Notes: a model not told the origin generated them from the sequence alone. Positions 1 through 24,439 are shown, counted from the stretch's first letter. The stretch: 64,000 bases of DNA from Eubacteriales bacterium (GCA_045632305.1 JAZQWL010000020.1:677-64676), one strand, 5' to 3'. A program made the numbers and translations.

Positions 1-2
1 TT

Positions 3-776: not shown

Positions 777-780
777 TACA

Positions 781-1974: not shown

Positions 1975-2036
1975 AATCAAAATGTTACGGCATAGGCCGA
2001 GCAGATAAATAACCAAAATAATTTAGGAGGCACACT

Positions 2037-3083
2037 ATGAAAAAAGCATTATCCCTCATTCTTGCAATCGCATTGGTTATCACAGCAGTTGCAGCATTCG
2101 CAAGCTGTAACAAGAAAGAAGAGTCCGGCGAAAAGACAATCGCAGTTATCGCTAAGGGCGAGTCCCATGCATTCTGGCAGTCTGTAAAGGCAGGCGCAGA
2201 AGCAGCTGGCGCTAAGTACGGATACAAGATCACATTCCGTGGTCCCGCAAGCGAATCCGCTAAGGATCTTCCCTCTCAGATGGAAATGGTTCAGACAGCT
2301 ATCTCCAACAAGGCTGATGCTATCGTACTTGCAACTATCGGTACAGGTTTCGTTGATATGCTTAGCACAGCTAAGGACAACGGTACTCCCGTAGTTCACT
2401 TTGACTCCGGTATCTGGGCTGAAGATATCGCTGCTCTCGACAAGGCAGGTAAGAACCCCCTCGTTTCCCACGTTGCTACAAGTAACTACAAGGCAGCAGA
2501 GCTCGCAGCTGAAAAGTTCTTCGAAGCTATCAAGGCTGACATCGCTGCTTCTGACGGTTCTTACGTAGTTGGTATCATCCAGCACGACGAAACACAGACA
2601 GGTACAGACAGAGCAAAGGGATTTGAAGACAAGTTCAAGGCTCTCGCAGACGCTGATGCTACAACAAAGGGCAAGTACACAATCGCTAAGGAAGTTAAGC
2701 CCGGCGACGCTGACAATGCATATAAGACCGCTCTCGAAGCTCTCTACGAAAAGGGCGCAGACGCTATCTTCATGACAAACGAAGGCGTTGTTAAACAGGT
2801 TTACGATGCAATCGGCGCAGCTGGTACAAAGTACGACGCTATCAAGTTCTGCGGTTACGATGCAGGCTCCAAGCAGATCGAATGGATGAAGGCAACAACA
2901 GGTCCCAAGCTCGTTGGTGCTGTTGCTCAGGACTCCTACCAGATCGGTTACCAGGCAGTTGAACAGGCAATCTTCGCTCTTGAAGGCAAGACAGTAACAC
3001 CTTCCGTTGCTATCGCAGGCGCATGGTGGAATGCTGAAAACGTTGACAAGATGATTGCTGATAAGCTCGTTTACGAAGGCTAA
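2037..3083 (+). CDS. Sugar ABC transporter substrate-binding lipoprotein (RbsB-like)
   Basis: Lipoprotein signal (AAFASC), AKGESHAFWQSVKAGA start typical of periplasmic sugar-binding proteins, AGGAGG RBS. Confidence 0.92.
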   Translation: MKKALSLILAIALVITAVAAFASCNKKEESGEKTIAVIAKGESHAFWQSVKAGAEAAGAKYGYKITFRGPASESAKDLPSQMEMVQTAISNKADAIVLATIGTGFVDMLSTAKDNGTPVVHFDSGIWAEDIAALDKAGKNPLVSHVATSNYKAAELAAEKFFEAIKADIAASDGSYVVGIIQHDETQTGTDRAKGFEDKFKALADADATTKGKYTIAKEVKPGDADNAYKTALEALYEKGADAIFMTNEGVVKQVYDAIGAAGTKYDAIKFCGYDAGSKQIEWMKATTGPKLVGAVAQDSYQIGYQAVEQAIFALEGKTVTPSVAIAGAWWNAENVDKMIADKLVYEG

Positions 3084-3132
3084 TTTCAAATTTTAATTAA
3101 CAGTAATAAAAACTGAATAATTAAACTTTACG

Positions 3133-3162
3133 AGTCCCTCCCTGTCTTGGCAGGGAGGGACT
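3133..3162 (+). terminator. GC-rich 12-bp stem-loop after the binding-protein gene (weak terminator or mRNA stabiliser)
   Basis: agtccctccctg-tcttgg-cagggagggact; only a short T run follows. Confidence 0.55.
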
Positions 3163-3251
3163 TTGAAGTAGAGTGGCTACTCCCTAAATTAACTAAATTT
3201 AACTCGAGATCAAACAAATTGAAATAAATATAAAATTGGAGGAAAAAATTT

Positions 3252-5054
3252 ATGGCACAGAACAGATACATCGGCGATTACCCCGTAATCGGTATCCGTC
3301 CCACAATTGACGGTCGTCGCGGTCCCCTCAAGGTTCGTGAAAGTCTTGAAGATCAGACAATGGCAATGGCAGAGGCCGCTAAGAAGCTCTTTGAGGAAAA
3401 CCTTTGCTACTCCAACGGCGAACCCGTAAAGGTTGTTATCGCTGACACAACAATCGGTCGTGTTGCTGAAAGTGCAGCATGCGCAGCTAAGTTCAAGAAG
3501 GAAGGCGTAGACATCACACTTACAGTTACTCCCTGCTGGTGCTACGGCTCCGAAACAATGGATATGGATCCCCTCACAATCAAGGGTGTTTGGGGCTTTA
3601 ACGGTACAGAACGTCCCGGCGCAGTTTACCTCGCTTCCGTTCTCGCTACACACGCTCAGAAGGGTCTTCCCGCGTTCGGCATTTACGGACACGACGTACA
3701 GAACCTTGACGAAGTAACAAACATTCCTGCTGACGTTCAGGAAAAGCTTCTCCGCTTCGGTCGCGCTGCAGTTGCAGTTGCTACAATGAGAGGTAAGTCC
3801 TACCTCCAGATCGGTTCCATTTGTATGGGTATCGGCGGCTCTATCATCGATCCCGCATTTATCGAAGAATATCTCGGCATGAGAGTTGAATCCGTTGACG
3901 AGGTTGAAATTATCAGAAGAATGAGCGAAGGCATCTACGATGCAGCTGAAGTTGAAAGAGCTAAGGCATGGATCAAGGATCACTGCAAGGAAGGTTGGGA
4001 CAAGAACCCCGAATTCGTTAGAACTTCCGATGAAAAGAAGGCAGAACAGTGGGACTTCCTCGCAAAGATGTACTGCATTATTAAGGACCTTATGAACGGT
4101 AACCCCAACCTTCCCGAAGGTTGCGAAGAAGAAATGGTTGGTCACAATGCAATCGCAGCGGGCTTCCAGGGTCAGAGACAGTGGACAGACTTCTATCCCA
4201 ACTGCGACTTCCCCGAAGCACTCCTCAACTCCTCCTTCGACCACAACGGTGCTCGTGAGCCCTACATTCTCGCTACAGAAAACGACGTTCTCAACGGTCT
4301 TGGCATGCTCTTCATGAAGTTGCTTACAAACCGCGCTCAGATGTTCTCCGACGTAAGAACATACTGGTCTCCCGAAGCTTGCAAGAGAGCTTCCGGTTAC
4401 GAAGTAACAGGCGTAGCTAAGGAAAACGGCGGTTTCATCCACCTTATCAACTCCGGTGCTACAGCTCTTGACGCTTGTGGCGAATGCCGCGACGAAAACG
4501 GCAATGCAGTTATGAAGAAGTGGTGGGAAGTTACAGACGCTGACATCGAAACAATGACAGCAGCTACAACATGGCCCGCAGCTGACAACGGCTACTTCAG
4601 AGGCGGCGGATTCTCCTCCTCCTTCACAACAAGAGCAGAAATGCCCGCTACAATGATCAGACTTAACCTCGTTAAGGGCCTCGGTCCCGTTCTTCAGATC
4701 GCTGAAGGTTGGACAGTTCAGCTTCCCGACGACGTTACAAAGACACTTATGATGCGTACAGACCCCACATGGCCTTGCACATGGTTCGCTCCTCGTTGCG
4801 ACGGTAAGGAAGGTTCTCCCTTCAAGACTGCGTACGAAGTAATGAACAACTGGGGTGCTAACCACGGCGCTATCTCCTACGGTCACATCGGTGCAGACCT
4901 CATTACAATGTGCTCTATGCTCCGTATTCCCGTATGCATGCACAACGTTCCCACAGAGGACATCTTCCGTCCCGCAGCTTGGAACGCATTCGGCATGGAT
5001 AAGGAAGGCCAGGACTACCGCGCTTGCGAAACTTACGGTCCTATGTATAAGTAA
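3252..5054 (+). CDS. fucI: L-fucose isomerase
   Basis: [44 protein letters not shown] motifs; 600 aa. Confidence 0.97.
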
Positions 5055-5067
5055 TATACAAAAATTT

Positions 5068-5096
5068 GGGAGGAGCTTTCAGCTCCTCCCTTTTTT
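5068..5096 (+). terminator. Rho-independent terminator of fucI
   Basis: gggaggagct-ttc-agctcctccc followed by T6. Confidence 0.85.
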
Positions 5097-5122
5097 GTGC
5101 CATCCTGTACTCTGCGCTCAAC

Positions 5123-5234
5123 GGGCGATTTTTGAATCGCCCCTGCGGACGGCGGCACCCGGGCACCACCCTGCAATTTTGCATTCTGCGCTCCATCCGT
5201 TACAAAAACGGGCAGATATAGAATCTGCCCCTAC
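5123..5234 (-). repeat. Pair of REP-like palindromes (G(T/C)AG-GGGC...GCCC type)
   Basis: Minus strand GCAGGGGCGATTCAAAAATCGCCC (5123-5146) and GTAGGGGCAGATTCTATATCTGCCC (5210-5234). Confidence 0.6.
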
Positions 5235-5252
5235 AATTCTTCATTTGGCACC

Positions 5253-5285
5253 AAAAAGAACCCGAGCCAAGCTCGGGTTCTTTTG
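5253..5285 (-). terminator. Bidirectional terminator closing the Ig-lipoprotein unit
   Basis: aaaaagaacccgagc-caa-gctcgggttcttttt. Confidence 0.85.
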
Positions 5286-5296
5286 TTTGTTAATTA

Positions 5297-8200
5297 TTAC
5301 TTGTGAACGTATTTAAGCGAAATAGCTGCACCACCGTAGTAAAGTGTGATGTAATCACCCATATAGAATTCTGCGCCGGGCTTTGTGAGTTGTTTATCAA
5401 CATAACATCCGGTCTGACCGTCAGTATACGCGGTGCTGAACAAAGGCGCATTAAGCTGGGGATGAGTAGACGTTACGATAGTCTGGAATATGGGAGCTCC
5501 CGAAGATACATACTCGTCAAGCACGGGGTTAGCAAACGTGCCGAGAGTAGTTATCTTACCGCCGCCAAGATCTGTAACGTTTATCGGAGAGTGTGTCTTC
5601 ATAACGGGCTCGCCGTCAATTACAAGAGAAGCGTTACACATATCACCGTTAAGCGACATGCCTTCACCCGCCATAGCAACCATTATCATTGTAATCGTTT
5701 CAACGCCCTGGATCTGATCTGTGGATGTAAATCCGTGAGGACCACCGGGTCCGCTGATAAGCGAGCTCATTGCTCTGATCTGAGCCGCGAGCTGTGTCTG
5801 ACCTACTGCTACGAACCATGCCTCCTGACCTGTTACGTGAGTATAAACGTCGGATTTACCTGTTATATTTACCTCTGCGCCCGAGGTCTTATTGTAGTTT
5901 TCATTATAGTGAGGCGCCTGAACAAGAATTACAGGACCACCGCACTTGCCGAGAAGCGAGTCATTGATATTAACCTTGAGGTTTTCAATGTATCCCCAAG
6001 TAGCTTCATTTGTACCGCCACAGTCATCCTGATGCTCATTTTCATTCCAGAGGAAGAGATGTCCCTGCCATGCATTGTAGAGCTTACAATCGTCAAGGTT
6101 GAGTGTAGAGTTCACTTCTTCTACGATAATAGATGTCATAAACGCATCAATGTTTACGTTATGCATATTAGTAACGTTCTCACCAACCTTATAGCTGGTA
6201 AGACCTCTCATATGTCTTTCGGAAGCGGACTGGTCGTTAGAGTTGGGGTCATTATCTCTTGTAGCGATATCCTGAATATTAACTACGAACTGTTCGAAGG
6301 GCTTAGACTTGCCTGCCAATGCTTCAGTTCTGATACTGCTATCTGCAGTGTCATTAAGTCTGATCTTGAAAAGGTCGGACGATGAATATTCGTCAGGGTT
6401 GTTTGCAACGCCCTTAGGTGTTACGGTAGGAACGTTATACGAGTAAACCGTAAAGTAGTTACCGTAGATGGAGAAGGTCTTCTGATTCATATCGAGATTT
6501 CTCCAGAACAAGCCAAGCTGGTCGTAAATACCCTGCTTTACGCCATTAGAATCCGTGTAAACGTATTCGGGAGGAATATCATCCTCGCCAACGTCAAGAT
6601 TGCCGTGAATAACGATAGCTGCGAGTGTAGAAGGTCTTGTTACGCCCTTGCTTGCAAGGAACTTGTCAACAACCTCAACCTGGTTGATTGCATTAGCTTT
6701 ACCAAAGCATTCCTGTGTAATATCACGGGAAACGTTCGTCATAACGTTAAGCTCCCATGCTTCGTAAACGTTATAACCGTCAACGATCGTTACCGTATAT
6801 TCCTTTGTAACGCTAGCTTCATCAATGTAGCTGGACGAGTCCGCAGGACGAATAACGATTCTGAACGTGTGACCAATAGCAGCTTCTGTAAAGTCATACG
6901 AATTGTTGATGGAATCAAATTCTACCCATGTCGGGAGCTCTTCTTTTGTAAGGGGTGTGGACGAGCCGTCCTTATAAATAGTAGCCGAGGTAGGAATTGT
7001 CTTACCGTCTACGTCAATGATGTTATCGTTAGCATCAAGAAGAATAACGTCAAGATAGAAGTTGAAAGGATTGTCATCACCTACGTAATAGGGACTGCTA
7101 TCATCCTTGAAGTTGCCCTTGTAGCTTTCTCTTGTAACAAGAGCATCGGGAAGAAGCGCACCGAAGATAAGGCCGTCTACGGTAGGAGCTTCAACTACTG
7201 TAATAGTCATTGTATCCTTAACACCCGAATATTCAACCTCAAGTGTTGCCTTACCTACAAAGAAGGTGTTTACATCACCAACCTTGAGCGCAGGATTATC
7301 TCTCTTTACGTAAATATATGTTCCGTCGTCGTACGTTACCTTAACGGAAATGTTGGACGTATCAACCTTCATACCAACGTATGCCTTGGGGAATACGCTT
7401 TCTTCTACGATTTCAACCGACGTAATTCCTCTTACGATTACGTTTACAACAGTTGTAAAGTTATATTCCTTAACTTCCTTCTGAGAAACCGCGTCTATGT
7501 AGGTGAAATACGAAATGCCGTCGCAATAAACGAAGGAAATTGCCTTTGTGCCCGCGGAGCTTGTATCAAACTTTGCGGGAGTGATCTTAATATACTTATC
7601 TGTGAACGGAACACGGTAAACGTCACCGTTATCATAGTATACGGAAAGCTTCATATCCGCGTAATTAAATGCGCCGCCCTGGAAAACGAGAGCGGGAACC
7701 GTGTCGTTAAGCGCGGAAATACGAACTACCTTGATCTGTGTCAAGGGCATGGATGCAGTAAGGTTCTCAAGATAGGTTACCTTGAAGCTTGTAGAGCCGG
7801 CTTCGTAGCCCGCAAAGGTTACGCCCTGAAGCTCGCTTGCCTTAACCTGTCTGTGAGCGCCGTCTGTGTATTCAATATCAAGAACGAGTTTAGAATAATC
7901 AAGTGCATAACCCGCTCTGATGCTATTGCTTACGCCACTGAAAATGGAAATGGACTTTTCTGCAATTACCTTATAAGAAACCGATATGGACGAGCCGTTA
8001 TAAGTAATTGTAAGGGACTTATCGCCGCCTGTTGAGGTGTCGGGCTTGGAGATCGTCAACTTGTCTGCGTTAACGTAAACCATGGATGTATGCGTACCGT
8101 CAGAATATGTTACTTTTACCTGAGCGCCCGACGTATCAAGCGTATCACCTCTGTATACAGAGGATGCAATACCGCCGACAAGCTCGATGTTAGAAATGGG

Positions 8201-9952
8201 AAGGATCGCTACGTCAACCTCATCTGTCTTGCCCTCATAGGTTGCCTTAAGCTTAACGTTTCCTGCAACGTTAGTTGCAACGTCTGTAAGTGTGAAGCCC
8301 GTGATCTTTTCAGACGAGCCGTTAGCGTATACCGCGTAAACGTTTACGCTGCTTGTGTTGAACGTACCGTTCAGAACTACCGACTTCTGCCAGCTTCTGA
8401 TTTCAATTCCAACAAGCTGGGGAGCTGTTGTGGAAATAATTACGTTCGCGTTAATTCCGTTATAGGATACAACGAGAATCTTGTCTTCCTCGCTGTTAAT
8501 ATCAAGACTGTCTACGTTTGTTGTAACACCGCTTGTAAGCAATACCTCGGTCTCATCGGCGTCATTGTAAACGCCGTAAACCTTCATGTTAGAAAGATCA
8601 ATGGGCTGACCTGCGGGAACAACTCTGTTTACGTCTTCAACACGGAGGGATGTAATAGTACAAACCTTAACCGCATACTGGATCGTCTTACCAAGATAAG
8701 TTACGGAAAGGTTCTGATTTCCCGCAACGGAGGAATCGAATGCGCCGAGAGTAAGCTCGGATGCACCCACAACGCTCTGTGTACCGTCTGTATAAGTAAC
8801 GAGCGCCTTGATACCTGACGTATTGAGTGTTGTGCCTATAAGAATTTCCGCATTAATGGAATCCTCTACGACCTCAATGTCCGCAACACCAACAACCTCG
8901 ATTTCAACGGATGTTGTAAGTCCTGCGTAGGAAACTGTAAGATTCTTCTTACCTGCGCTTGCAGTATCAAGCTGACCAAGTGTAAGATCAGCAGCTGTAA
9001 GCGATGTCTGCGTGCCATCACTGAAAGTAAGAACTGCAGTAATGTTAGGAGCGGCATACGCGGAGTTTACCTTTACCTTTTCATCATAAGAGCCCTTATT
9101 TACCGCAACGGATACAACGCCTACAACCTCAACCTCGTAAGTATAGGTTACACCCTTATATACGATTTCAAGATTCTTCTTGCCGTATGTTGTTGTGTCA
9201 ATAGTACCGATAGTAAGAGCTGCGCCCTCAGCGATCTCTTCCTTGCCGTCAGCATAAGTTACGACCAACTGAAGCTTGCTTGTATCAAGAGCTTCGCCTA
9301 CGTTGATCTTCTTAGCTACAGAGCCGGTAACTACCTGCGCGCCTGTAATTCCGAAAACCTCGTATTCAACGCTTGCCTTGATCTCGGGGTTAGCTGTATA
9401 TGTTACAGTAAACGTATACTTGCCTGCAACCGACGTGTCAACCGTTGTGTATGTGTATTCAGAAGGATCAAGTGCGTCCTTTGTACCGTCGCTGTAAACC
9501 GCTTCGACCTGAAGCTTTGTTATATCGGGTATCTGACCGAGATGATATCCCTTGTCAAACGAACCCTCAAGAATGTTAATGTTTGTAACATATCTTGTAG
9601 CAATGGGGTCAACTACCATTACTTTAATCTTAACGGAAATTTCTCCGTATGTTACGGTAATATACTTTTCACCCGCTGTCATCGTGTCAAGCTCTGTAAC
9701 AGTTACGTCTGCAAAGCCGATTTCCTTTGTTGTGCCGTCATTGAACGTAACCTTTACCTTAATTCCCGAAAAATCGGGAGTAGAACCCATATTGATCTGG
9801 GTAGGAATTGTGCCTTCGACAACCTCGATGCTCTTGATACCGTTTGCAACAACGTCACCCTCGTTACCGTCATCGGGCTTGTTGGAGCATGCAGCAAAGC
9901 AAAGAACTGCCGCAAGCAACAATGTAATCAAAATTAATAACTTGTTTTTCAC
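5297..9952 (-). CDS. Large surface lipoprotein: 11 tandem bacterial Ig-like (Big_3-type) repeats plus an uncharacterised ~620-aa C-terminal domain
   Basis: Lipobox FAAC (Cys22); eleven ~80-aa repeats with V-x-Y-x-D-G and DT-x-x-A-G...V-x-Y motifs; GTG start with AAGGAG RBS. Confidence 0.85.
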   Translation of the reverse strand: MKNKLLILITLLLAAVLCFAACSNKPDDGNEGDVVANGIKSIEVVEGTIPTQINMGSTPDFSGIKVKVTFNDGTTKEIGFADVTVTELDTMTAGEKYITVTYGEISVKIKVMVVDPIATRYVTNINILEGSFDKGYHLGQIPDITKLQVEAVYSDGTKDALDPSEYTYTTVDTSVAGKYTFTVTYTANPEIKASVEYEVFGITGAQVVTGSVAKKINVGEALDTSKLQLVVTYADGKEEIAEGAALTIGTIDTTTYGKKNLEIVYKGVTYTYEVEVVGVVSVAVNKGSYDEKVKVNSAYAAPNITAVLTFSDGTQTSLTAADLTLGQLDTASAGKKNLTVSYAGLTTSVEIEVVGVADIEVVEDSINAEILIGTTLNTSGIKALVTYTDGTQSVVGASELTLGAFDSSVAGNQNLSVTYLGKTIQYAVKVCTITSLRVEDVNRVVPAGQPIDLSNMKVYGVYNDADETEVLLTSGVTTNVDSLDINSEEDKILVVSYNGINANVIISTTAPQLVGIEIRSWQKSVVLNGTFNTSSVNVYAVYANGSSEKITGFTLTDVATNVAGNVKLKATYEGKTDEVDVAILPISNIELVGGIASSVYRGDTLDTSGAQVKVTYSDGTHTSMVYVNADKLTISKPDTSTGGDKSLTITYNGSSISVSYKVIAEKSISIFSGVSNSIRAGYALDYSKLVLDIEYTDGAHRQVKASELQGVTFAGYEAGSTSFKVTYLENLTASMPLTQIKVVRISALNDTVPALVFQGGAFNYADMKLSVYYDNGDVYRVPFTDKYIKITPAKFDTSSAGTKAISFVYCDGISYFTYIDAVSQKEVKEYNFTTVVNVIVRGITSVEIVEESVFPKAYVGMKVDTSNISVKVTYDDGTYIYVKRDNPALKVGDVNTFFVGKATLEVEYSGVKDTMTITVVEAPTVDGLIFGALLPDALVTRESYKGNFKDDSSPYYVGDDNPFNFYLDVILLDANDNIIDVDGKTIPTSATIYKDGSSTPLTKEELPTWVEFDSINNSYDFTEAAIGHTFRIVIRPADSSSYIDEASVTKEYTVTIVDGYNVYEAWELNVMTNVSRDITQECFGKANAINQVEVVDKFLASKGVTRPSTLAAIVIHGNLDVGEDDIPPEYVYTDSNGVKQGIYDQLGLFWRNLDMNQKTFSIYGNYFTVYSYNVPTVTPKGVANNPDEYSSSDLFKIRLNDTADSSIRTEALAGKSKPFEQFVVNIQDIATRDNDPNSNDQSASERHMRGLTSYKVGENVTNMHNVNIDAFMTSIIVEEVNSTLNLDDCKLYNAWQGHLFLWNENEHQDDCGGTNEATWGYIENLKVNINDSLLGKCGGPVILVQAPHYNENYNKTSGAEVNITGKSDVYTHVTGQEAWFVAVGQTQLAAQIRAMSSLISGPGGPHGFTSTDQIQGVETITMIMVAMAGEGMSLNGDMCNASLVIDGEPVMKTHSPINVTDLGGGKITTLGTFANPVLDEYVSSGAPIFQTIVTSTHPQLNAPLFSTAYTDGQTGCYVDKQLTKPGAEFYMGDYITLYYGGAAISLKYVHK

Positions 9953-10048
9953 CTTTCAAATTCTCCTTTCAACAATACGTTTAAAAATCACGCGTTTGTT
10001 TTCTGGTCTTTCTTCAAAGCATAAATTGTATAAAGTTTATTTTAAAAT

Positions 10049-10112
10049 CGTTGGAACAAAATAAATCGTTGGAGCAAATATATTTAAAATAAAATATATT
10101 ACGTTGGAGCAA
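10049..10112. repeat. Three 11-bp direct repeats CGTTGG(A/G)-type upstream of the large lipoprotein gene
   Basis: cgttggaacaa 10049-10059, cgttggagcaa 10067-10077 and 10102-10112. Confidence 0.7.
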
Positions 10113-10195
10113 TGCGCGACCATCTCGCGCGGGATATCTCAACACCTTCCCTTCCGCATAGAATTTTATTTGATAAGTTTATGTGCGCGCCTCGG

Positions 10196-10597
10196 TCAGT
10201 TTGCGATAATCGTGATGGTATCCTGAGCATTGGTACCATCCTTTGCAATCACAAACACCTTTACGGAAACACCTCTTCTTTCAAGTGTAACTACACCGTT
10301 TTCATCAATGGTTACACCCGCAGTCTGAGTATCATAAACAAAATCTACTTCAGTATTTGTAGCATCATCGGGGAAAACTCGATATTGGATCTGGAATTTA
10401 TATTCACCGTTCGCATTGGGTTTTACAACTATGTAATCGCCATGCTGCTCACTGTGCTTCTGTCCTTCATTCGTGATCTCAATGCTTTCAACGTCGACGA
10501 TCTCCTCAAAAACCTTAAACTGCAAGCCGAAAAAGCTTACAAGCGCAATGGAAGCTATGTATATAAGCGCAATAATAATAACTACTGATTTTTTCAT
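10196..10597 (-). CDS. Small membrane-anchored Ig-like (Big_2-type) domain protein
   Basis: N-terminal TM helix, then V-F-P-D-D-A-T-N...VTIDENGVVT...AKDG pattern typical of Big_2 domains. Confidence 0.75.
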   Translation of the reverse strand: MKKSVVIIIALIYIASIALVSFFGLQFKVFEEIVDVESIEITNEGQKHSEQHGDYIVVKPNANGEYKFQIQYRVFPDDATNTEVDFVYDTQTAGVTIDENGVVTLERRGVSVKVFVIAKDGTNAQDTITIIAN

Positions 10598-10599
10598 AA

Positions 10600-12261
10600 T
10601 TATTTCTCCTTATAATAAAGCTTCAACATTGAGAAGAACATACATGTTCTGAAAACAAGCACCGCTGTTGCTACGAAAATGAACTTGGAATAAACGTGTC
10701 CCTCACCCTCAAGAAGAAGGAGGAATACCGCTACCGCCGCAAGGAAGGCAACAATAAACGCAGCCGCAGTAGACTTCATTTCATTGGGGTTGGAAACCGT
10801 GCTTCCTACGCTCGCGTAAAGCTGACTCTGGGGATTCATAAGGTCGAGCTGTGCAGAGTAGAACATGTGGGCAATGAAAATAAATTCTATCGCCAAAATT
10901 ATATGAACTATATCAACAGTTCCAAGTGAAGGAAGTGTCAATTTCAAAATGGGGGCTGTTGCCAAAATCGCGCCTGCGCCGAACACTGTATTCGGTATAA
11001 GCTTCGTAACTACGGGCAACGTATATTTAGAAGGAAGAGTTTTAATAAGATAGCTACTCTGTCCGTCTCTGGAATACAAGCTGGAAATTGCGCAGTTTGA
11101 GTTGAGCGCAATAAGAAGCATAATAAGAATATTGAACGCCACGATCATGTTATCACCCATTTCTCTTGTCTTCATCGCAAGGAAGATCTTATTGAGAAGG
11201 AAGATAAGCATGGGAATGGAAATCAGAATTCCCACGTTTGCAAAAATCGTGTTCGTGTTTTTTACCGTAATAAGGAAGTTGGTAAATATAGAGGAACGAA
11301 CCTTTCCTCTTGCGCGGTTCTTCTTGGGAGCTACGGGCTTCTTTAAGTACTCGAAGGGAGTGGACGCCATCTTGTAGAAGAGAGGACGAACGATAAGAAG
11401 GCCTGCGCCGAGAGTTGCAAGAGTAACACCGGCAAGTACAAGGAATCTTACGGCAGTTCTTCCAATCGGGAAGAAAATATCGAGGTGGTTGATCTCACCG
11501 AGAAGCATACGGGTAAAGTCATAAAGGAAGCTGAAATTCTTCGCGTATGCGCCAAGGAAATCCTGAATCTGCCAATAGATAGTTGACCACGCGGCAACAA
11601 GGTCAATGTTTTCGGGAATAAGCGAAATTCCGAAGAATAATGCCGTCGATGCAGCCGCAACAGTTGCAACAAGTCCCGTCATCTGAATCCACTTGTGCTG
11701 ACGGCAGAAATTCGCGATCCACATAGCGGGAATCGACAAAAGCGCGCCGATCGCCACCGTGAAAAGCGAGATCCAAAGCATACAGAAGAGCATCCACACG
11801 TACGCGCCTGCGCCGTAGCCGTGGGTGATAAAGTATGCAATGAACATAGGAACGAGGAACGAAAGGTTTCTCTTGATTTCAAATATAAAGAATATAATAA
11901 GCTTGGAGAGGTAAACCTGAAGCGAAGGACAAGGAAGTGTCAAAAGCACCGCGTTGTCTCTTGCATAATACATAGACTTTGTAAGTCCTACCGTACAGGA
12001 AACCACCGACAAAGCAAGCATCACGGAGAATATCAAGGATATAACCGTGTCGGGAATAGGTCTTCCCTGGAAGGAGAATAAGCCAAGGAGCTTAGATACA
12101 AGCAGAAATGCAATGCAAAGGCCTGTAACCAAAACGAATTTAACAAGCGATCCGACTGCTGAAAGCAATATGCTGAATAGCTTTGCGTTTTCACCCTTTA
12201 AACGCTTGAAGTTCATCTGTTCCTTGAGCTGCATCATTACAAGGATATACAGACTTTTCAT
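10600..12261 (-). CDS. Polytopic membrane protein, probable ABC exporter permease
   Basis: About 12-14 hydrophobic segments; D-x-x-x-LLTLP and DG-x-x-x-YLIKTLP internal repeats typical of ABC export permeases; 4-bp overlap with the ATPase-fusion gene. Confidence 0.75.
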   Translation of the reverse strand: MKSLYILVMMQLKEQMNFKRLKGENAKLFSILLSAVGSLVKFVLVTGLCIAFLLVSKLLGLFSFQGRPIPDTVISLIFSVMLALSVVSCTVGLTKSMYYARDNAVLLTLPCPSLQVYLSKLIIFFIFEIKRNLSFLVPMFIAYFITHGYGAGAYVWMLFCMLWISLFTVAIGALLSIPAMWIANFCRQHKWIQMTGLVATVAAASTALFFGISLIPENIDLVAAWSTIYWQIQDFLGAYAKNFSFLYDFTRMLLGEINHLDIFFPIGRTAVRFLVLAGVTLATLGAGLLIVRPLFYKMASTPFEYLKKPVAPKKNRARGKVRSSIFTNFLITVKNTNTIFANVGILISIPMLIFLLNKIFLAMKTREMGDNMIVAFNILIMLLIALNSNCAISSLYSRDGQSSYLIKTLPSKYTLPVVTKLIPNTVFGAGAILATAPILKLTLPSLGTVDIVHIILAIEFIFIAHMFYSAQLDLMNPQSQLYASVGSTVSNPNEMKSTAAAFIVAFLAAVAVFLLLLEGEGHVYSKFIFVATAVLVFRTCMFFSMLKLYYKEK

Positions 12262-14525
12262 GCGTTAACCTCCTCGTTTGCCGTCTCTTCTACGAAGGGA
12301 ACGTGTTCATCGTTACCGTCGTAAATAATGCTGAGGTAGAACTTTTCGAGTTCAATTCCCTCTTCATTAAGCTCCTTCATGGACTTGTATGCGCGGAGCT
12401 GGCCCTTCTTGATAATAGCGATCTTATCGCAGAGCTTTTCAACTACGTCGATAATATGTGAGGAGAAGAATACGATATTACCCTTTGCGGCGTGACGCTT
12501 CATGCATTCCTTAACCTCGTGAATACTTGTGGGGTCAAGACCTGTAAGCGGCTCGTCGAGGATCCAGACCTTAGGATTGTGAACAAGAGCGGACATGATC
12601 GTGATCTTCTGCTTCATACCGTGGGAGTATGTCTTCATCTGGTTGTCAATAGCGCCTGTGAGCTGGAATACTTCAACGTATTCATCCATGAAGGCATCTC
12701 TGTCTTCCTTTGTAACTCCGAAGAGGTCTGCTATATAGTTTATGTATTCTCTACCCGTAAGGTTTTCGTAAAGCGCGTAATGGTCGGGAACGAACGCGGT
12801 ATTCATCTTTGCAGCAACGGGCTGCTTTTCAACGTCGAAGCCGCAGATCTCGATGTTACCGGACGTAATAGTCTGAATACCAACCATACTCTTGATGATC
12901 GTGGACTTACCTGCGCCGTTCGGGCCCAAGAAGCCGAAGATCTCACCGCCTTTTACTTCAAAGGAAACGTTATTTACTGAATAGTGCTTGTTGCTTCCGT
13001 ATCTCTTGGAGAAATTGCGAAGAACGAGACGAGGTTCTTCATTGCCTGTAATGGAAGCGGTTTCGGGCTTGCCGCCGAGATATTTCTTCAAATCTTTCTT
13101 CATTCTCTTATAATCCTTTTCTCTCTTACTTCTGTCTTCGTCTGCATCGATTGCAGTGAACAATAAACCGTACAGGAACCATACTCCAACAGAGAGTAAC
13201 AAGTAAACTCCGATGAAGATAAGCTGATATATCGGATAAAATTCCAAATCATAACCGCGGAAATTCAAGGTCACTGTAAAGTCGCGTGTCTTTTCCGCCC
13301 AGAGACCAAGCTTTGAAACAATAAAGTCACTGTTTGTAAAGAAGAAGTCGGAAACCTCGCCTTCTCTCTGCGTAAGATACGCGTTTACAAATACCATCGA
13401 GCTGTAGTAAACTACGAGCGCCGCCAAGGAGTACAGCCACTGCTTAACCTTAGGTCTTTCAAATATTCTGAGCGCCATTACAAGGATCGGCATGCCGAAC
13501 GCGGCGTAGTGGTTAACCCAATAAGAGATACGCTCCGTACCGATAGGGCTGCATTCTGCCAACGCATACGGCATAAGCATCGCGAAGAGCGCGCCGATCA
13601 CGTTGATAAACAAACAGAAATTGAAAAGTCGCTTCATCTTAAAGATGAGACACAAGGGAACGAGGAACATCGCAAGGTTACACAAGTGAAGCGGCCAGTT
13701 TGCGAGGTTCTTGAACTCGTGAAGCTCCCAACGGCCTATGTATACCCACATAAGACCGAGCGTCATGTAAATAAGGATCATTCTCTTGAGATCGTGGGAC
13801 TTGTTTCTGAGAAGCAGGTATCCTACAACGGGAAGAATAATCGAAAAATAAAGAATAATTCTGTGCTCAGGTGTTACGTCGTAAAGCTGAAGCTCGGGAT
13901 TTACAAGTCCGTAGAAAAATGCTTCGGGAACGTAGCAAGGCATGATCGCCAGAACACCGAGGATGAGCGCGTAGAAATAATTTCCAACGTCTCCGATCTT
14001 CTTGGGCACCTCAAACTTCTTCTCCTCAAGAATCTTACTTACGATAATTGAAAGAGCTATACCGATCTCCACAGCCATTATCCAAAGCTTAGTTGTGGAA
14101 AGCGCATACGCCTCGTTGCCAACCGTTGCTATCGCGTACACCTCATAGAAAACGAGTGACGCCACAAACACGGGCAACGCGAAAAGATTCACCATTCTGC
14201 GAAGCGTCTTGTAATCGAAGAACGCGCTGATAACCGTCATGAGTATCGCCGCGTATGAGAACCATACGAGAAGAACTCCGAGGGCAGTCAAGCCGGGACG
14301 CGCCACATCTACGTTAAACGGAGACGTCGGCCCTTTAAGTCCCATCAGGTCATAGATCACGGGCTTCTTTGTAAGATATCTTACAAATGACACCGCAAAC
14401 AATACGACCGCGAGCGCCTTGGTCACGATCGCAGTATTGATCTTGGTTCGACGAAGCAAAAGCACGCCGCCAATCAATACCAATGCGGCGCCTAACGCCG
14501 CAGCCGCGAAAATCAAATTGATCAT
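12258..14525 (-). CDS. YwaF/TMEM164-like integral membrane region fused to a C-terminal ABC ATPase
   Basis: WPLHLCN and downstream NH motifs in the membrane part; GPNGAGKS Walker A, YSHGMKQK signature, ILDEP Walker B, SSH switch. Confidence 0.85.
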   Translation of the reverse strand: MINLIFAAAALGAALVLIGGVLLLRRTKINTAIVTKALAVVLFAVSFVRYLTKKPVIYDLMGLKGPTSPFNVDVARPGLTALGVLLVWFSYAAILMTVISAFFDYKTLRRMVNLFALPVFVASLVFYEVYAIATVGNEAYALSTTKLWIMAVEIGIALSIIVSKILEEKKFEVPKKIGDVGNYFYALILGVLAIMPCYVPEAFFYGLVNPELQLYDVTPEHRIILYFSIILPVVGYLLLRNKSHDLKRMILIYMTLGLMWVYIGRWELHEFKNLANWPLHLCNLAMFLVPLCLIFKMKRLFNFCLFINVIGALFAMLMPYALAECSPIGTERISYWVNHYAAFGMPILVMALRIFERPKVKQWLYSLAALVVYYSSMVFVNAYLTQREGEVSDFFFTNSDFIVSKLGLWAEKTRDFTVTLNFRGYDLEFYPIYQLIFIGVYLLLSVGVWFLYGLLFTAIDADEDRSKREKDYKRMKKDLKKYLGGKPETASITGNEEPRLVLRNFSKRYGSNKHYSVNNVSFEVKGGEIFGFLGPNGAGKSTIIKSMVGIQTITSGNIEICGFDVEKQPVAAKMNTAFVPDHYALYENLTGREYINYIADLFGVTKEDRDAFMDEYVEVFQLTGAIDNQMKTYSHGMKQKITIMSALVHNPKVWILDEPLTGLDPTSIHEVKECMKRHAAKGNIVFFSSHIIDVVEKLCDKIAIIKKGQLRAYKSMKELNEEGIELEKFYLSIIYDGNDEHVPFVEETANEEVNA

Positions 14526-14580
14526 AAAGAATAAACCTCACCATCTTGAGTTTTAAGAAATTGTACGTGTTGCCTGATTG

Positions 14581-14640
14581 CAATATAATTTCATTATATT
14601 GTTCTCCGATCATTATACCATAAAATCACATATAAGTCAA
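14581..14640 (-). promoter_or_regulatory. SigA promoter with downstream palindromic operator
   Basis: Minus strand TTGACT-17bp-TATAAT with extended TG (14640-14612); perfect inverted repeat CAATATAAT-ttc-ATTATATTG at 14581-14601. Confidence 0.75.
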
Positions 14641-14910
14641 CGCCCGTCGCCTTCTTTCGACGCCATCGCCAAAATTCGACCTTTCATTTTGCAAGTTTTT
14701 TGGTGAAAATGACGATAAATTTTTGCGGTTTTTTGAGCTTTATTAATTGATTTTTAAGATTTGACGGAAGTTTTAACGAAATTGTTAAAATTCCTCATTT
14801 TGTTCACATATTATATTATATATTTTAATGAAGCAAATCTGCGCCCACCGTCAGACGAAGAGAAAAAAACACCCCCAACGCCATCGCGTTTGCCGTGGTT
14901 TATTAAGCAA

Positions 14911-16416
14911 TTATCCCTGTGCCTCGTCCTCAAGGTCGGAGGTGGGAGCTTCTGTTTCTACTTCGTTGTTGTTATTATTACCAAAATCGGGAAGTGTAAT
15001 TGCACTGCCTGCAGAGACAGTCTTATAGCCACAGTCGAATCTTACTGTTTCACACTTGTCAAATACAACCTTGCCGCTCTTGTTGAGAATAATGCAATTC
15101 ATATCGCCGTTTTCGTCTTCTTCAAATACAACAGCGTATCCGTCGGAGAAGAATGCGCCGCCCTCGTCGTAATCAAGAGCGATCACTTCCTTACCGTTCT
15201 TGTCGATAAAGCCGTAATACTGATCATCCATAACGCATGCAAAGTCAGCGGGATAGAAGCTTTCAGCATCATAATACTCGAAGTCGATAACGAGCTCGCC
15301 CTTAGTATCCATGTATCCGAACTTGCCAACCTTGTTGTCGCGTCTGATCTCCTGAACGAGGATAAGACCGTTATTGTAGGGAGCGCAGGGCTTACAATCC
15401 TCAAATTCAAAGATCTCCTCACCCTTCTTATCGATAACTATGTAATCATCGCGGTCCTCAACGATAGCTCTGCCATCTGCATAGTCAGCAAACACCTTAT
15501 CAAAATCAGCGTCTACTACAACCTTACCCTTTGTATTGATAACGCCCCACTTGTCATCCTCCTTGTAGAATGCAAGGCCGTCATCCTCAGAGAAAGGACG
15601 GATCGCCTGATAACCGAGCTTAATTACAACGTCACCCTTTGTATTGATAACGCCAAATTCGCCTTCCTTGTTGCAAACGATGGAAAGATTGAACTCATCG
15701 AACGCTTCTGCAGAAGCGTATCTGGGCTTAACTGTCCATTCGCCCTTCTTGTTGAGAACGCCCCAAACACCGTCGTCCTTTGCAACTGTGCTGCCGTTCT
15801 TTGCGGGAAGCTTGATATCTTCATACTTTACAGGGAAAACAAGCTCACCCTTGCTGTCGATCACACCGAAAAGGATTCTGCCTTCCTTATCGTTGTACTT
15901 ACCAACGACAGCAAGACCCTCTTCATTGAACTGACCGATGGACGCATACTTGAATTCAATTACGGTCTCGCCATTCTTATCGATAGCGCCAACCTCATTC
16001 TTATCGTTCATTACAACTGCAAGTCCGTTATCATAGAAGCCGGTACCCGCAATGTACTTGTCCTTGATCTCAAATTCGCCCTTCTTATTGATATAACCGT
16101 ATGTCTTGCCGTCCTTGGATGCCAAAGCAAGACCGTTTTCAGCGAATGCATACGCCTCGGCATACTTTGCGCTGATCACCTTTTTACCCTTCTTATTGGC
16201 ATATCCCCATTCCTGACCGTCGAAGAAGCATACGAGGTCCTCATGGAAAAGGTTTACCTCCTCTGTTTTCTTATCGAAAAGCTTAGGAAGAATAACCGCA
16301 AGAAGAATGATAGCAACAACGGCTACAGCGCCGATGATCGCGAACAATAAAGCTTTATTCTTATTGGGATTTTTCTTTTCCGAACCCGGATTTACATTTT
16401 CGAATTCGTTGTTCAT
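14911..16416 (-). CDS. Membrane-anchored WG (KWG)-repeat protein
   Basis: N-terminal TM helix, then many [W/Y/F]G-x-I-[N/D]-x-x-G...F-x-x-G-x-A repeats; acidic tail. Confidence 0.88.
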   Translation of the reverse strand: MNNEFENVNPGSEKKNPNKNKALLFAIIGAVAVVAIILLAVILPKLFDKKTEEVNLFHEDLVCFFDGQEWGYANKKGKKVISAKYAEAYAFAENGLALASKDGKTYGYINKKGEFEIKDKYIAGTGFYDNGLAVVMNDKNEVGAIDKNGETVIEFKYASIGQFNEEGLAVVGKYNDKEGRILFGVIDSKGELVFPVKYEDIKLPAKNGSTVAKDDGVWGVLNKKGEWTVKPRYASAEAFDEFNLSIVCNKEGEFGVINTKGDVVIKLGYQAIRPFSEDDGLAFYKEDDKWGVINTKGKVVVDADFDKVFADYADGRAIVEDRDDYIVIDKKGEEIFEFEDCKPCAPYNNGLILVQEIRRDNKVGKFGYMDTKGELVIDFEYYDAESFYPADFACVMDDQYYGFIDKNGKEVIALDYDEGGAFFSDGYAVVFEEDENGDMNCIILNKSGKVVFDKCETVRFDCGYKTVSAGSAITLPDFGNNNNNEVETEAPTSDLEDEAQG

Positions 16417-16514: not shown

Positions 16515-19034
16515 TTATTCAACCTCGTAACCTGCCTGAATAATTATGCTCTTTATCTGCTCCTCACCGATACCGCCGTCAGTTACAACTATCGCACTTC
16601 CCGCAACGTGGCTTACCGTAGCGGATATAATATTTTCATTTGCCTCAAGGCACTTTTTTACTCTCGCCTCACAATGAGGGCACATCATTCCTGAAACCTT
16701 AATTGTAAATTCCATTTTCTTTTTATCTTCCCTTTCTTTGAAACGTTCTTCTATTTTCGCAGCGTCAACGCCCGATTTTCCGCGCATTATACGAGTCCGA
16801 TCAAGCTTAACGAAATTAAGTCGGAGCGCGTTGCTGACAACGCAGAAGCTCGAAAGACTCATCGCAAGAGCTCCAAACATAGGATTCATACTCCAACCGA
16901 GAAGCGAGACGAATGCCCCTGCCGCAAGAGGAATGCCGATGACGTTATACGCGAACGCCCAAAACAAATTTTCCTTAATGTTTGTAAGGGTTTTTCGACT
17001 CAGACGAATTGCCCTTCCGACATTCTCAACGCCTGAATTTATAAGCACAACGCTCGCCGCGTCAAGCGCGATATGACTGCCCGCTCCAATGGCAACGCCA
17101 ACGTCCGCAACGGTAAGCGCCACCGCATCGTTTATGCCGTCGCCAACCATTATTACTCTGCCGAGCTTTTTCATTTCACGGACGATCTCGCCCTTTTCTG
17201 CCGGCAACACATCGGAAAAAATATAGTCCACGCCGACGCTCTTGCCGACCGCCTCGGCAGTTCTTCTGTTGTCACCCGTGAGCATTACGGTGAAAATTCC
17301 CATGTTGCGAAGCGCCGCAACCCCGTCCTTACTGCTTTGACGAAGCTTATCCGCAACCGCGATAATGCCGAGCGGAGCGCCGTCCAGAGCAAATATCATA
17401 GGGGTTTTTCCCTCGGACGAAAGTCTGTCCGCGGCACACTTCAGATCGTCACTCAAAGCTATACGAGATAAGGCAAATTTAATATTTGAAGCAAACGCGT
17501 CTTTACCCTCGAAAACGCCTTCAACACCGCTTCCCGAAAGCGTCTTGAAGTCCACAATTTCCTTTGCCTCAATACACTTTTCTCTGCAGTAGTCAACCAC
17601 CGCGCGCGCTAACGGATGCTCGCTTTTTGCCTCAAGCGAGAGTGCAAGTGCAAGAAGCTCGGACTCGTCAATTCCGCCCGATGTGACAATATCCGTTACA
17701 GTCGGCTTGCCCTCGGTAAGAGTTCCCGTCTTATCCAGAATCACAATATCCGCCCTGCCCGTATTTTCAAGAGCTGTAGCGTTCTTAAAGAGTATTCCGC
17801 GCTTTGCGCCAACTCCGCTGCCCACCATGATCGCCACGGGAGTCGCAAGCCCCAGCGCGCACGGACAGCTTATAACAAGCACGGAAATTCCCTTAGCAAG
17901 GGATGTGCCAACGTCCATTCCGCTTACAATTAGCCACACAGCCATCGTCACAAGAGAGATCGCTATCACACACGGTACAAACACCGCGGACACCTTGTCC
18001 GCAATTTTGGCTATCGGCGCTTTTGTTGCCGTAGCATCACTTACCATTTTTATTATTCCCGAAAGCACGGTGTCGTCTCCGACGTTCACCGCCTCACATA
18101 CGGTATATCCCGAAACGCTTACGGTCGCGCCGAAAACCGTGTCTCCGACAACCTTGTCCACAGGCAAGCTCTCACCCGTGAGCATGGATTCGTCAACCGA
18201 CGCGCCGCCATGTATGACCTTCGCGTCAGTGGGAATGCTCTCGCCCGCAAAAACGCAGAATCTGTCACCGACCTTTATTTCCCCTGCGGGAATATCAACA
18301 GTGTTTCCGTCAGCATCTATCTTATGCGCGATCTTAGGAGCAAGATTTATAAGCGCCTCGATCGCGCTCGTCGTTCTGCCCTTCGCTCTCGCCTCAAGGG
18401 TTTTTCCGACGGTAATAAGCGCCAGGATCATCGCCGCGGATTCGAAATAAAGCTCTCCGTGAAGTATGTGATGCGCCGTCTCCGTATCCGCAAGAGCCAT
18501 TTTGACAGTCATGCAAGCACTGTAAACAAATGCGGCTCCCGCCCCTAATGAAACGAGCGTATCCATGTTCGGGGATCTGTTGATTATGCCCTTCACTCCG
18601 TTTGTGAAAAACCTTTTATTTATAAGCATTACCGCCAATGTAAGCGCCATCTGTACAAGCGCTATGATAAGCGGATTTTTACTCAAAAATTCAGGCAACG
18701 GAAATCCCCACATTACGTGTCCCATCGATACGTACATAAGGAAAATCAACACAACGCAGGACGAAATAAGCCGTGATATTAAATTTTTCGTTTCCTTCTT
18801 AGCACTGTCCGACGCCACGCTCGGTGACGCTCTTTTCTCGCTCACCTTTGCGCTGTATCCCGCCACCTCAACAGCCGAAATAATAACTGTATCGTCAAGA
18901 TCACTCTCGACCGTCATTGAGTTCGTAAGGAGATTTACAGAGCAGGAGCTGACACCGTCAAGCGAGCCGACCGCACGCTCAACTCTTGCCGAGCAAGCCG
19001 CGCAGGACATGCCTCCAATATCAAATTTTCTCAT
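16515..19034 (-). CDS. copA: Copper-translocating P1B-type ATPase with N- and C-terminal HMA domains
   Basis: GMSCAAC, TGES, CPC, DKTGT, SEHP, GDGIND, YN in TM7, C-terminal GMMCPHC. Confidence 0.93.
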
Positions 19035-24381: not shown

Positions 24382-24439
24382 ATAAAATCCTCTAACCTTC
24401 AAAAGCTCGGTGCGTATCCCGAGCTTTTGAAAAATATTT

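Follow-up and report, generated by a model that had tools for sequence, protein, structure and literature searches.

The nearest described parallels to the subject of this report, a four-gene locus (G1 to G4) in a 64-kb stretch of DNA from an Eubacteriales bacterium (GCA_045632305.1, JAZQWL010000020.1:677-64676; the whole stretch is called the window below), come from enzymes that act on lipids or lipoproteins and from ATP-binding cassette (ABC) complexes. Lnt works at the outer face of the membrane through a Cys-thioester acyl-enzyme charged from a phospholipid donor, and lipoproteins are also handled by LolCDE, an ABC machine. The human phospholipid transacylase TMEM164 is reported to bind an acyl chain, taken from a phospholipid, as a thioester on Cys123, which is partnered by His181 (bioRxiv 10.1101/2022.07.06.498872; PMC12830759), and to shift acyl chains between phospholipids without coenzyme A (bioRxiv 10.1101/2022.07.06.498872); two members of its ATGY superfamily, AIG1 and ADTRP, are described in the latter source as lipid hydrolases. 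In Bacillus subtilis, LhaT (YpjA), the lipoprotein heptaprenylglyceryl N-acetyltransferase, belongs to the same superfamily and, according to its published description, uses a lipid-linked donor to N-acetylate the termini of lipoproteins at the outer face; the flippase for that donor is given there as unknown (PMC12345273). In NosDFY(L), which delivers copper to nitrous oxide reductase, the elongated periplasmic beta-helix NosD is described as sitting on a NosF2Y2 complex, taking Cu(I) from the lipoprotein NosL and passing it on in an ATP-dependent cycle (PMC13685413).

The four open reading frames (ORFs) of the locus follow one another on the minus strand in the order G1-G2-G3-G4. They encode, respectively, a membrane domain of the TMEM164/YwaF type fused to an ABC ATPase, a type-V ABC membrane protein, a small membrane-anchored protein related to immunoglobulin-like (Ig) proteins, and a large lipoprotein in which a stalk of Ig repeats leads to a predicted beta-helix head. 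The components are of known kinds (type-V ABC, ATGY enzyme, Ig domains, beta-helix), while their combination, a fusion with an Ig adaptor and a cognate beta-helix lipoprotein, was not found described. No account of this fusion or operon was found in the literature searched, which covered few subscription journals and no supplements, and the searches made returned nothing on the function of bacterial TMEM164/YwaF proteins. A preliminary description of the locus had recognised no described system of this architecture, and neither family scans nor PDB sequence searches nor the literature gave a match to a characterised ABC system whose substrate is known. The reading preferred here, with a probability of roughly 0.4, is that the four genes make up a dedicated machine that would acylate or load its own docked lipoprotein, by analogy with the enzymes above. 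It is suggested by four things together: a Cys/His pair predicted to face outward, a fused motor of a lipid-exporter class, a co-encoded lipoprotein, and an adaptor predicted to hold that lipoprotein.

Human TMEM164 belongs to the same Pfam family (PF14808) as part of G1, and the Cys and His of G1 are predicted on helices three and five of the core, the helices given for Cys123 and His181 in accounts of the human protein (PMC12830759; bioRxiv 10.1101/2022.07.06.498872); the correspondence is one of helices, not of aligned residues. G1 differs in having six further N-terminal helices and a C-terminal ABC ATPase, and its motif reads PLHLCN, against N121, P122, C123 and H124 as given for the human protein. 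LhaT is likewise a polytopic membrane protein of the ATGY superfamily, reported to acylate lipoproteins at the outer face with a group that was ester-linked to a lipid donor, the route of the donor being unknown, but it is described as a six-helix DUF1405 protein (PMC12345273), related to the PF14808 domain of G1 at the superfamily level only. It also stands alone, has a general lipoprotein range and shows no linkage to ABC or substrate genes.

NosDFY(L) has a type-V ABC core in which NosY is the top structural match of the G2 model and NosF is among the relatives of the G1 ATPase, and it is described as combining an extracytoplasmic beta-helix docked at the complex with a lipoprotein, and as spending ATP on a conformational hand-over, not on bulk transport (PMC13685413). 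In the present locus, by contrast, the beta-helix protein is itself a lipoprotein with an Ig stalk, its head has no sequence relation to solved chains, docking is predicted to go through a separate single-pass Big_2 subunit, and the ATPase shares its chain with an acyltransferase-like membrane domain; neither nosZ nor a copper context was noticed, nos genes not having been searched for in the genome. The mycobacterial efflux system Rv1217c-Rv1218c also has two fused type-V domains in one chain, with a separate ATPase of the DrrA class, but is a drug pump without an acyltransferase fusion, Ig adaptor or cognate lipoprotein. Among solved proteins, the lipid exporters ABCA1, ABCA3, ABCA4 and ABCA7 are nearest to the G1 ATPase, and the membrane domain of ABCA4 matches half of G2; these are, however, single-chain full transporters of eukaryotes, which have large extracellular domains and no acyl-transfer domain. 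Lnt and LolCDE resemble the locus by function only, since G1 has no nitrilase-family match and G2 is type V, not type VII as LolC/E are.

The four-gene arrangement recurs well beyond the window. In a collection with one genome per species, a G1 relative was found in at least 560 of 599 stretches matched by pattern, and the 80 related loci kept from these stretches provide the synteny counts given here; all 80 are from metagenome-assembled or uncultured Clostridia or "Bacilli", many of them from ruminant guts. G2 follows G1 in every one and G3 comes next in 76, the four misses being contigs that end in or just after G2. A G4 head is encoded in 68 loci, always on the strand of the module: 66 have it downstream, and two (L047 and L048, both "Bacilli") upstream of G1. 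In 11 of the 12 head-less loci the contig ends before the expected place of the head; the twelfth, L064, starts inside G1; like L047 and L048 it is a "Bacilli" locus, and its G1 identity is similar to theirs. Where G4 is downstream, the G3-G4 gap is below 100 bp in 47 of 66 cases, gaps here being minimum estimates taken from the longest ORFs. Synteny holds down to about 44% identity in G1 and about 21% in the head, and because the arrangement recurs in 80 related loci it is far beyond chance; conservation of the four genes in other genomes had been set beforehand as a check on the preliminary description, as had a comparison with characterised ABC systems, and neither check refuted it. The flanking genes of the window are common only to L001 among the 80 loci. 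No recurring fifth gene was found, the best flanking cluster being housekeeping-like and present in 11 of the 80. An origin in a mobile element was considered and rejected on the same two grounds, the unshared flanks and the housekeeping-like flanking clusters; no mobility genes were seen near the module, no scan having been aimed at them.

Co-occurrence was counted in 61 genomes, namely that of the window, 36 others of the same genus and 24 from other families. A G2 orthologue is present in the window's genome and in four of the 36, and in none of the 24; all five genomes with an orthologous G2 also have the head. The head occurs in two more genomes, at a contig edge, with no G2 found there, and four same-genus genomes that have only a distant G2 paralogue (23-27% identity) are head-less. 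Since the module is patchy even among same-genus genomes, it is accessory. An order-wide search with the whole of G1 (E <= 1e-80) found it in its own genome only, among 151, a count that may be too low because only seven candidates were scored in each genome and every genome encodes many ABC ATPases; the distribution given above therefore relies on the G2 and head searches.

Two of the four genomes with the distant G2 paralogue were examined for gene order, and both have a split, five-gene version of the system. Its first gene encodes an unfused PF14808 13-helix protein (475-479 aa) that keeps the Cys (PLDLCN) and the His, followed by a 242-aa ABC ATPase, a 533-534-aa permease, an anchor protein of 317-318 aa that carries two Big_2 domains, and a protein of 1294-1334 aa whose stalk is of the Big_2 type; the last was translated in L096, where it carries a lipoprotein signal. 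The order is that of the fused four-gene system, so that a TMEM164-like protein accompanies this type of ABC complex in unfused form as well. Homology of the two heads is not established, as the split-system head matches the G4 head profile with a probability of only 15.7% (E 0.0016).

The G1 fusion combines two well-supported family matches. PF14808 (TMEM164), for which the cut-off is 25 bits, scores 68.7 and is covered from profile position 4 to 212 of 217; since Bacillus subtilis, one of the control genomes, is matched by this model too, the label "YwaF" is appropriate. PF00005 scores 93 bits, with a cut-off that is also 25. At E <= 0.01 the Pfam scan of G1 returned these two, PF13304 and PF13476 only, and thus no DUF1405 (the LhaT family), no nitrilase-family match and no carbohydrate-binding domain after the ATPase. 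The family score and the Walker A, signature, Walker B and H-loop motifs identify the C-terminal part as an ABC transporter ATPase (GPNGAGKST at 534-542, YSHGMKQ at 633-639, LDEP with E658, and H690; invariant in 13 of 13 sequences). By NCBIfam it is DrrA/GldA/NodI-like, below every curated cut-off. Its closest solved relatives in a PDB sequence search are ABCA3, ABCA4, ABCA1 and ABCA7 (E 6e-69 to 5e-58), with Rv1218c (E 4e-35), NosF (E 1.3e-32) and LptB next.

Within the membrane domain, 18 of 18 G1 orthologues have both Cys282 and His339, and among wider relatives these two are the best-kept polar residues (Cys in 115 and His in 110 of 124). They are on the third and fifth helices of a seven-helix core, helices 9 and 11 overall. 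Hydropathy combined with the positive-inside rule gives means of 20.3 Lys plus Arg for the predicted inner loops and 8.7 for the outer ones, which supports an N-out, C-in topology; from the same hydropathy and loop counts, both residues are predicted to lie 5-7 positions from the outer ends of their helices, and a conserved loop (386-428, DFFFxNSDF) would fall outside the cell. An internal duplication of the membrane domain was rejected (hhalign of residues 1-215 against 216-470, probability 0.6%). The fusion itself is widespread: the protein collection contains at least 284 relatives, the two-domain make-up is common to all 120 among the matches listed, and database names do not go beyond "ATP-binding cassette domain-containing protein" or "hypothetical protein". 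Residues 1-470 match 244 clusters (E <= 0.001) among 1.84 billion representatives, in proteins of about 700-830 aa when fused and about 450-500 aa when unfused; a single protein of 1062 aa has some 300 extra N-terminal residues. The genome of the window also has three stand-alone PF14808 ORFs of 231-296 aa (C4:3430-4131, C26:11538-12080 and C12:10185-10751), two of which exceed the family cut-off.

G2 was modelled with AlphaFold2 (mean predicted local distance difference test, pLDDT, 80.2) as 12 helices forming a fused double type-V (ABC-2) membrane domain with almost no extracytoplasmic mass. The family signal is slight in the window copy itself, where PF16949 (ABC_tran_2, putative ABC exporter) reaches 25.3 bits against a gathering cut-off of 25.7, and clearer among orthologues (20 of 36 at E <= 0.01, best E 6.3e-9). 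In structural comparisons the top match is NosY (7o0y_D) to the C-terminal half (Z 15.1, root-mean-square deviation 3.8, 215 residues aligned), followed by ABCA4 (Z 14.8, also half), ABCG2 (Z 13.7) and CcmB (Z 13.0). The best full-length match is Rv1217c (8k1m_B; Z 12.5 over 419 residues, spanning both halves), which Foldseek also recovers with a probability of 1.00 and a template modelling score (TM-score) of 0.44. Wzm, TarG and KpsM are weaker neighbours (Z 8-9, or Foldseek probability 0.7-0.9), and the LolC/E-type chain 7arh_E reaches only Z 7.3. Since the scores of NosY, ABCA4 and ABCG2 are close, the predicted fold is best taken as generic type V (the ABCA/ABCG/Wzm/NosY class). PDB sequence searches with G2 alone and with a G2 profile returned zero matches, as did Foldseek against the PDB at E <= 0.001; the matches above come from aligner-based search.

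The N-terminal sequence of G4 identifies it as a lipoprotein and a predicted Lgt/Lsp substrate: all 23 orthologues compared keep the lipobox cysteine, and the genome encodes PF01790 (Lgt) twice and PF01252 (Lsp) once. Big_3 matches G4 at E 4.9e-46 in seven stretches by Pfam, and the iterated profile finds all 11 repeats. The number of stalk repeats differs widely among orthologues, complete ORFs of which range from 704 to 2027 aa, many with a single Ig domain before the head. The head (about 630 residues) gave a confident model (pLDDT 90.1; predicted template modelling score, pTM, 0.92) that has the fold of a right-handed parallel beta-helix of the pectate-lyase-like kind. It matches 116 solved chains at Z >= 8, the best at Z 15.3-12 over 210-260 aligned residues, among them tailspikes, alginate epimerase/lyase (Z 14.6-14.7), GH110, pectin methylesterase, AlgE4 and WceF, together with the adhesins SRRP of L. 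reuteri (Z 14.1) and PfbA (Z 12.4). As no neighbour stands out, the fold gives a class only.

Sequence comparisons of the head were largely negative. No Pfam family matches the window's head at E <= 0.01, NosD-type families included, and the generic Beta_helix model weakly matches three of 39 head orthologues (best E 0.0021). A PDB sequence search with the head profile gave zero matches, and one with the whole of G4 two chance-level rows only. Foldseek against the PDB was also empty at E <= 0.001, the structural neighbours again coming from aligner-based searches. NosD is not among the best 50 structural matches, an uninformative result because beta-helices saturate that list at Z > 10.8, and an ESM Atlas look-up was equally uninformative ("hypothetical protein" clusters with Ig domains, scores <= 0.90). 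Invariant polar or aromatic residues of the head are Y955, N961, H1116, E1377 and W1379. At the extreme C-terminus, residues 1486-1551 (5297-5497) resemble part of a Big_3 repeat unit (E 2.3e-14 against the iterated profile), which suggests an Ig-like cap after the beta-helix.

G3 has an N-terminal membrane helix and one extracytoplasmic Big_2 Ig-like domain; Big_2 matches 18 of 31 orthologues (best E 3.2e-7), while the window's own G3 misses E <= 0.01. Mean identity among orthologues is 73% in the helix and 36% in the ectodomain, a difference that is read as pointing to specific contacts inside the membrane. For complex prediction, the G3 and G4 orthologues of locus L034 were used with custom alignments, a pair chosen because its short stalk lets the whole mature lipoprotein fit the prediction. 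The median score was 0.79 (runs of 0.79, 0.84 and 0.41) against 0.01 for the best control, the runs sharing at least 73% of contacts with a partner pLDDT of at least 79. G3 is predicted to contact successive beta-helix rungs and the preceding helix along one flank of the head, leaving the stalk untouched. Mapped on the window's G4, the interface falls at about 934-947, 1168-1172, 1230-1240 and 1267-1270; the contact residues themselves vary, and invariant residues lie near them in sequence. Binding of the G3 ectodomain to the G4 head is thus supported at the level of a structural model.

There is strong support for a type-V ABC complex similar to Rv1217c/Rv1218c or the ABCA transporters, in which two copies of the G1 ATPase would pair with the 12-helix G2. 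In the preferred reading, Cys282 and His339, near the outer leaflet, would form an acyl-thioester from a membrane lipid as in human TMEM164, and the acyl group would be handed to the cognate lipoprotein G4, kept at the complex by G3, in parallel with LhaT. The ABC motor could bring the donor lipid to the outer leaflet, drive docking and release of the head, or do both, after which the head at the end of its stalk may act as a glycan-binding or glycan-cleaving module. The fully specified version, an ATP-powered machine of Gram-positive gut bacteria for lipidation and deployment of a single substrate, in which the motor feeds the donor, the outward-facing Cys-His domain covalently acylates G4 while G3 keeps it in place by the head, and the head is then released on its stalk, is somewhat unlikely.

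The idea of a dedicated machine was already present in the preliminary description and has gained from the co-occurrence of the genes, the split sister system and the predicted complex of G3 with the head. Its account in which the head captures a lipid found no support, the head being predicted as a parallel beta-helix typical of glycan-active enzymes and adhesins; G3 is predicted on the head and not on the stalk, and the module is accessory. Acylation of the lipoprotein by the complex, at first an alternative, now leads because of the LhaT precedent (PMC12345273), by analogy only.

Several points weigh against acylation or loading of a docked lipoprotein as the function of the locus. Both the acyl transfer and its acceptor come from analogy, and the G1 domain belongs to the TMEM164/YwaF branch (PF14808), not the DUF1405 branch of LhaT. 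The outward position of the Cys and His derives from hydropathy and the positive-inside rule and not from a structure, and no residue alignment of G1 with human TMEM164 was obtained because the profile of the G1 membrane domain had zero matches among PDB chains. Lnt, Lit and LhaT act on lipoproteins in general, and none of them is known to be encoded beside a single substrate. The complex score was calibrated on a benchmark in which 116 of 157 solved complexes and two of 215 mismatched pairs reach the mark, and this calibration is only rough for the orthologous L034 pair with its custom alignments. G3 is predicted on the head, not at the lipidated N-terminus, so docking or loading would fit at least as well as N-terminal acylation. 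A membrane-docked head on an 11-repeat stalk would also require the stalk to be looped or the docking to be transient; transient docking followed by release is perhaps the simplest way to reconcile the two, as a guess. Finally, the invariant His, Glu, Trp and Tyr of the head point to a function of its own that is left unexplained, and none of the readings considered here accounts for them, for the variation of the stalk from one Ig domain to many, or for docking on an 11-repeat stalk.

The alternative that survives best, though somewhat unlikely, is a mechanotransducer or cargo hand-over like that of NosDFY, in which G4 would not be modified covalently and ATP would instead change the state of the head docked through G3 or load it with a non-covalent hydrophobic cargo, for instance a lyso-lipid or fatty acid released by a TMEM164-like hydrolase and then carried or used by the head. 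The hydrolase activity reported for AIG1 and ADTRP is in keeping with such a cargo, the scarcity of extracytoplasmic mass in G2 and the predicted seat of G3 against successive rungs recall NosD on its complex, and NosF is among the solved relatives of the ATPase. The top rank of NosY counts for less than it might, being tied with ABCA4 and near ABCG2, and the head is matched by sequence to no solved chain and, weakly, by the generic Beta_helix model in only three of 39 orthologues. A Cys nucleophile is moreover the transferase variant seen in TMEM164, not the hydrolase variant, and variable stalk length argues for a head that acts away from the membrane.

Two co-regulated but separate functions, with G1-G2 (and perhaps G3) as a lipid-remodelling or efflux pump serving envelope homeostasis in the gut, for example against bile or membrane-active compounds, and G4 as an independent adhesin or glycan-degrading enzyme, seem improbable. 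The ATPase class (DrrA, lantibiotic protection, Rv1218c) does include drug and peptide efflux systems, the fold neighbours of the head include the two adhesins and many glycan lyases and hydrolases, G4 stands in the window behind a 243-bp spacer with repeats of its own, and in two loci it is upstream of G1. Against this, the genes stay together in unrelated contexts at head identities as low as those given above and co-occur within the genus, the pairing is preserved in the deep split paralogue, and the complex prediction supports binding between G3 and G4.

Export and processing of a polymer, with a lipid-linked glycan or teichoic-like chain passing out through the type-V ABC as in Wzm/Wzt, TarGH and KpsMT, the TMEM164-like domain acylating it or freeing it from its lipid and the head trimming or epimerising it, is decidedly improbable. 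Wzm, TarG and KpsM do appear among the fold neighbours of G2, at lower scores, and alginate epimerase/lyase, AlgE4 and WceF among those of the head, but no glycosyltransferase or polymer-synthesis gene recurs beside the module, G1 has no extra carbohydrate-binding domain after its ATPase, and the ATGY-superfamily enzymes so far characterised, in the accounts cited above, act on lipids or lipoproteins. Least credible of all is lipid scavenging, in which the head would capture external lipid, the ABC would import it and the TMEM164-like domain would move its acyl chains to the cell's own lipids: coenzyme A-free acyl exchange by TMEM164, the kinship of the ATPase with ABCA lipid transporters and the small genome (1.6 Mb) would suit it, but the parallel beta-helix is not a known lipid-binding fold and has glycan enzymes, tailspikes and adhesins for neighbours, type-V ABC systems are mostly exporters, and the absence of the module from most same-genus genomes searched argues against a basic nutritional need.

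The layout of the locus follows the preliminary description closely. ORF coordinates (Table 1) confirm the four co-oriented genes, with an overlap of 4 bp between G1 and G2 and gaps of 2 bp and 243 bp before G3 and G4, and its domain assignments were borne out by PF14808 and PF00005 on G1, a predicted type-V fold of G2, Big_2 in G3 orthologues, and a lipobox and 11 repeats on G4. The single terminator it placed at the end of the locus corresponds to the hairpin after the G4 stop. Of its "strong promoter/operator", the promoter fared better than the operator. The promoter-like site upstream of G1 is the best in a scan of positions 4800-15200, a scan that overall returned 17 sites against 18.0 expected by chance in shuffled sequence, so that only the quality and position of this site count. 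The palindrome beyond its -10 is a possible operator by sequence, but none is claimed because the palindrome was found in 0 of the 80 related loci. In the G3-G4 spacer, the three direct TTGCTCCAACG-like repeats are the only matches (with at most one mismatch) in the window, and could be a candidate regulator-binding array for a separate G4 promoter.

Table 1. Features of the locus in the window and of the split sister system
Feature	Position	Residues	Strand	Remarks
G1	12258-14525		(-)	ORF, 755 aa
G1 membrane domain		1-470		13 predicted helices; single 470-residue unit
TMEM164/YwaF-type core of G1	13194-13871	219-444	(-)	ATGY superfamily; motifs PLHLC(282)N and NH(339)Y
G1 ABC ATPase		~495-755		C-terminal
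G2	10600-12261		(-)	ORF, 553 aa
G3	10196-10597		(-)	ORF, 133 aa
G4	5297-9952		(-)	ORF, 1551 aa; GTG start
G4 signal peptide and lipobox (Cys22)	9887-9952		(-)	N-terminus ...LCFAAC(22)S
G4 stalk, 11 tandem Big_3-like Ig repeats	7187-9847	36-922	(-)	Iterated profile search
G4 head	5300-7186	923-1551	(-)	Helix, Ig-like domain, predicted right-handed parallel beta-helix
Sigma-70-type promoter-like site	14640-14612		(-)	TTGACT-17-TATAAT with TG extension; 11/12 consensus positions
Perfect palindrome	14581-14601			CAATATAAT-N3-ATTATATTG; 9+9-bp arms; between -10 and G1 start, just downstream of -10
Three direct TTGCTCCAACG-like repeats	10049-10112		(-)	G3-G4 spacer; spaced 18 and 35 bp
Intrinsic-terminator-like hairpin	5254-5284		(-)	14-bp stem, 7 G-C pairs; 12 bp after G4 stop
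Split sister system	L096 (G161:C17) 1006-9842; L097 (G165:C38) 528-9280		(-)	Five genes

Upstream of G1, on the same strand, lie genes for a protein with seven WG-containing beta repeats (PF14903; 14911-16416) and for a heavy-metal P-type ATPase with two HMA domains (16515-19034), both shared only with the closest relative, L001. The genome's single Lsp gene (signal peptidase II, PF01252, E 4.9e-39; about 23929-24357 on the minus strand, inside ORF 23845-24402) is about 9 kb upstream of the module, where it adjoins a pseudouridine synthase gene.

Near-identical DNA is present in sequencing runs labelled gut metagenome and bovine gut metagenome, and in one run the whole four-gene stretch is found on a 14.4-kb contig with 222 differences. 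Contigs from an RNA library cover parts of G4 and G2 at 91-100% identity and none crosses 9955-10271; because such a library may also contain DNA, neither expression nor transcription of the spacer is established by them. In all three runs that were compared with the window a depth spike with several joints and loose ends was seen at 12491-12807, in the part of G1 that encodes the ATPase, where conserved ABC-ATPase sequence from other organisms is likely to have piled up.

For the bacterial TMEM164/YwaF branch, a member joined in one chain to an ABC motor and associated with a single client lipoprotein offers a setting in which its chemistry can be tested. The question of how acyl donors reach the outer face, raised for LhaT in its published description (PMC12345273), may have one answer in a fused ABC-acyltransferase. 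If the fully specified version described above, with covalent acylation of G4, is true, it would mark the first case of an acyltransferase built into an ABC transporter, and likewise of a lipoprotein-tailoring system whose genes stand beside that of its only client. The locus stands for a large family of surface machines, so far without annotation, in Clostridia and Bacilli of the animal gut, and even with some other chemistry, a beta-helix surface protein held on a type-V ABC complex through an Ig adaptor would serve as a template for its annotation.

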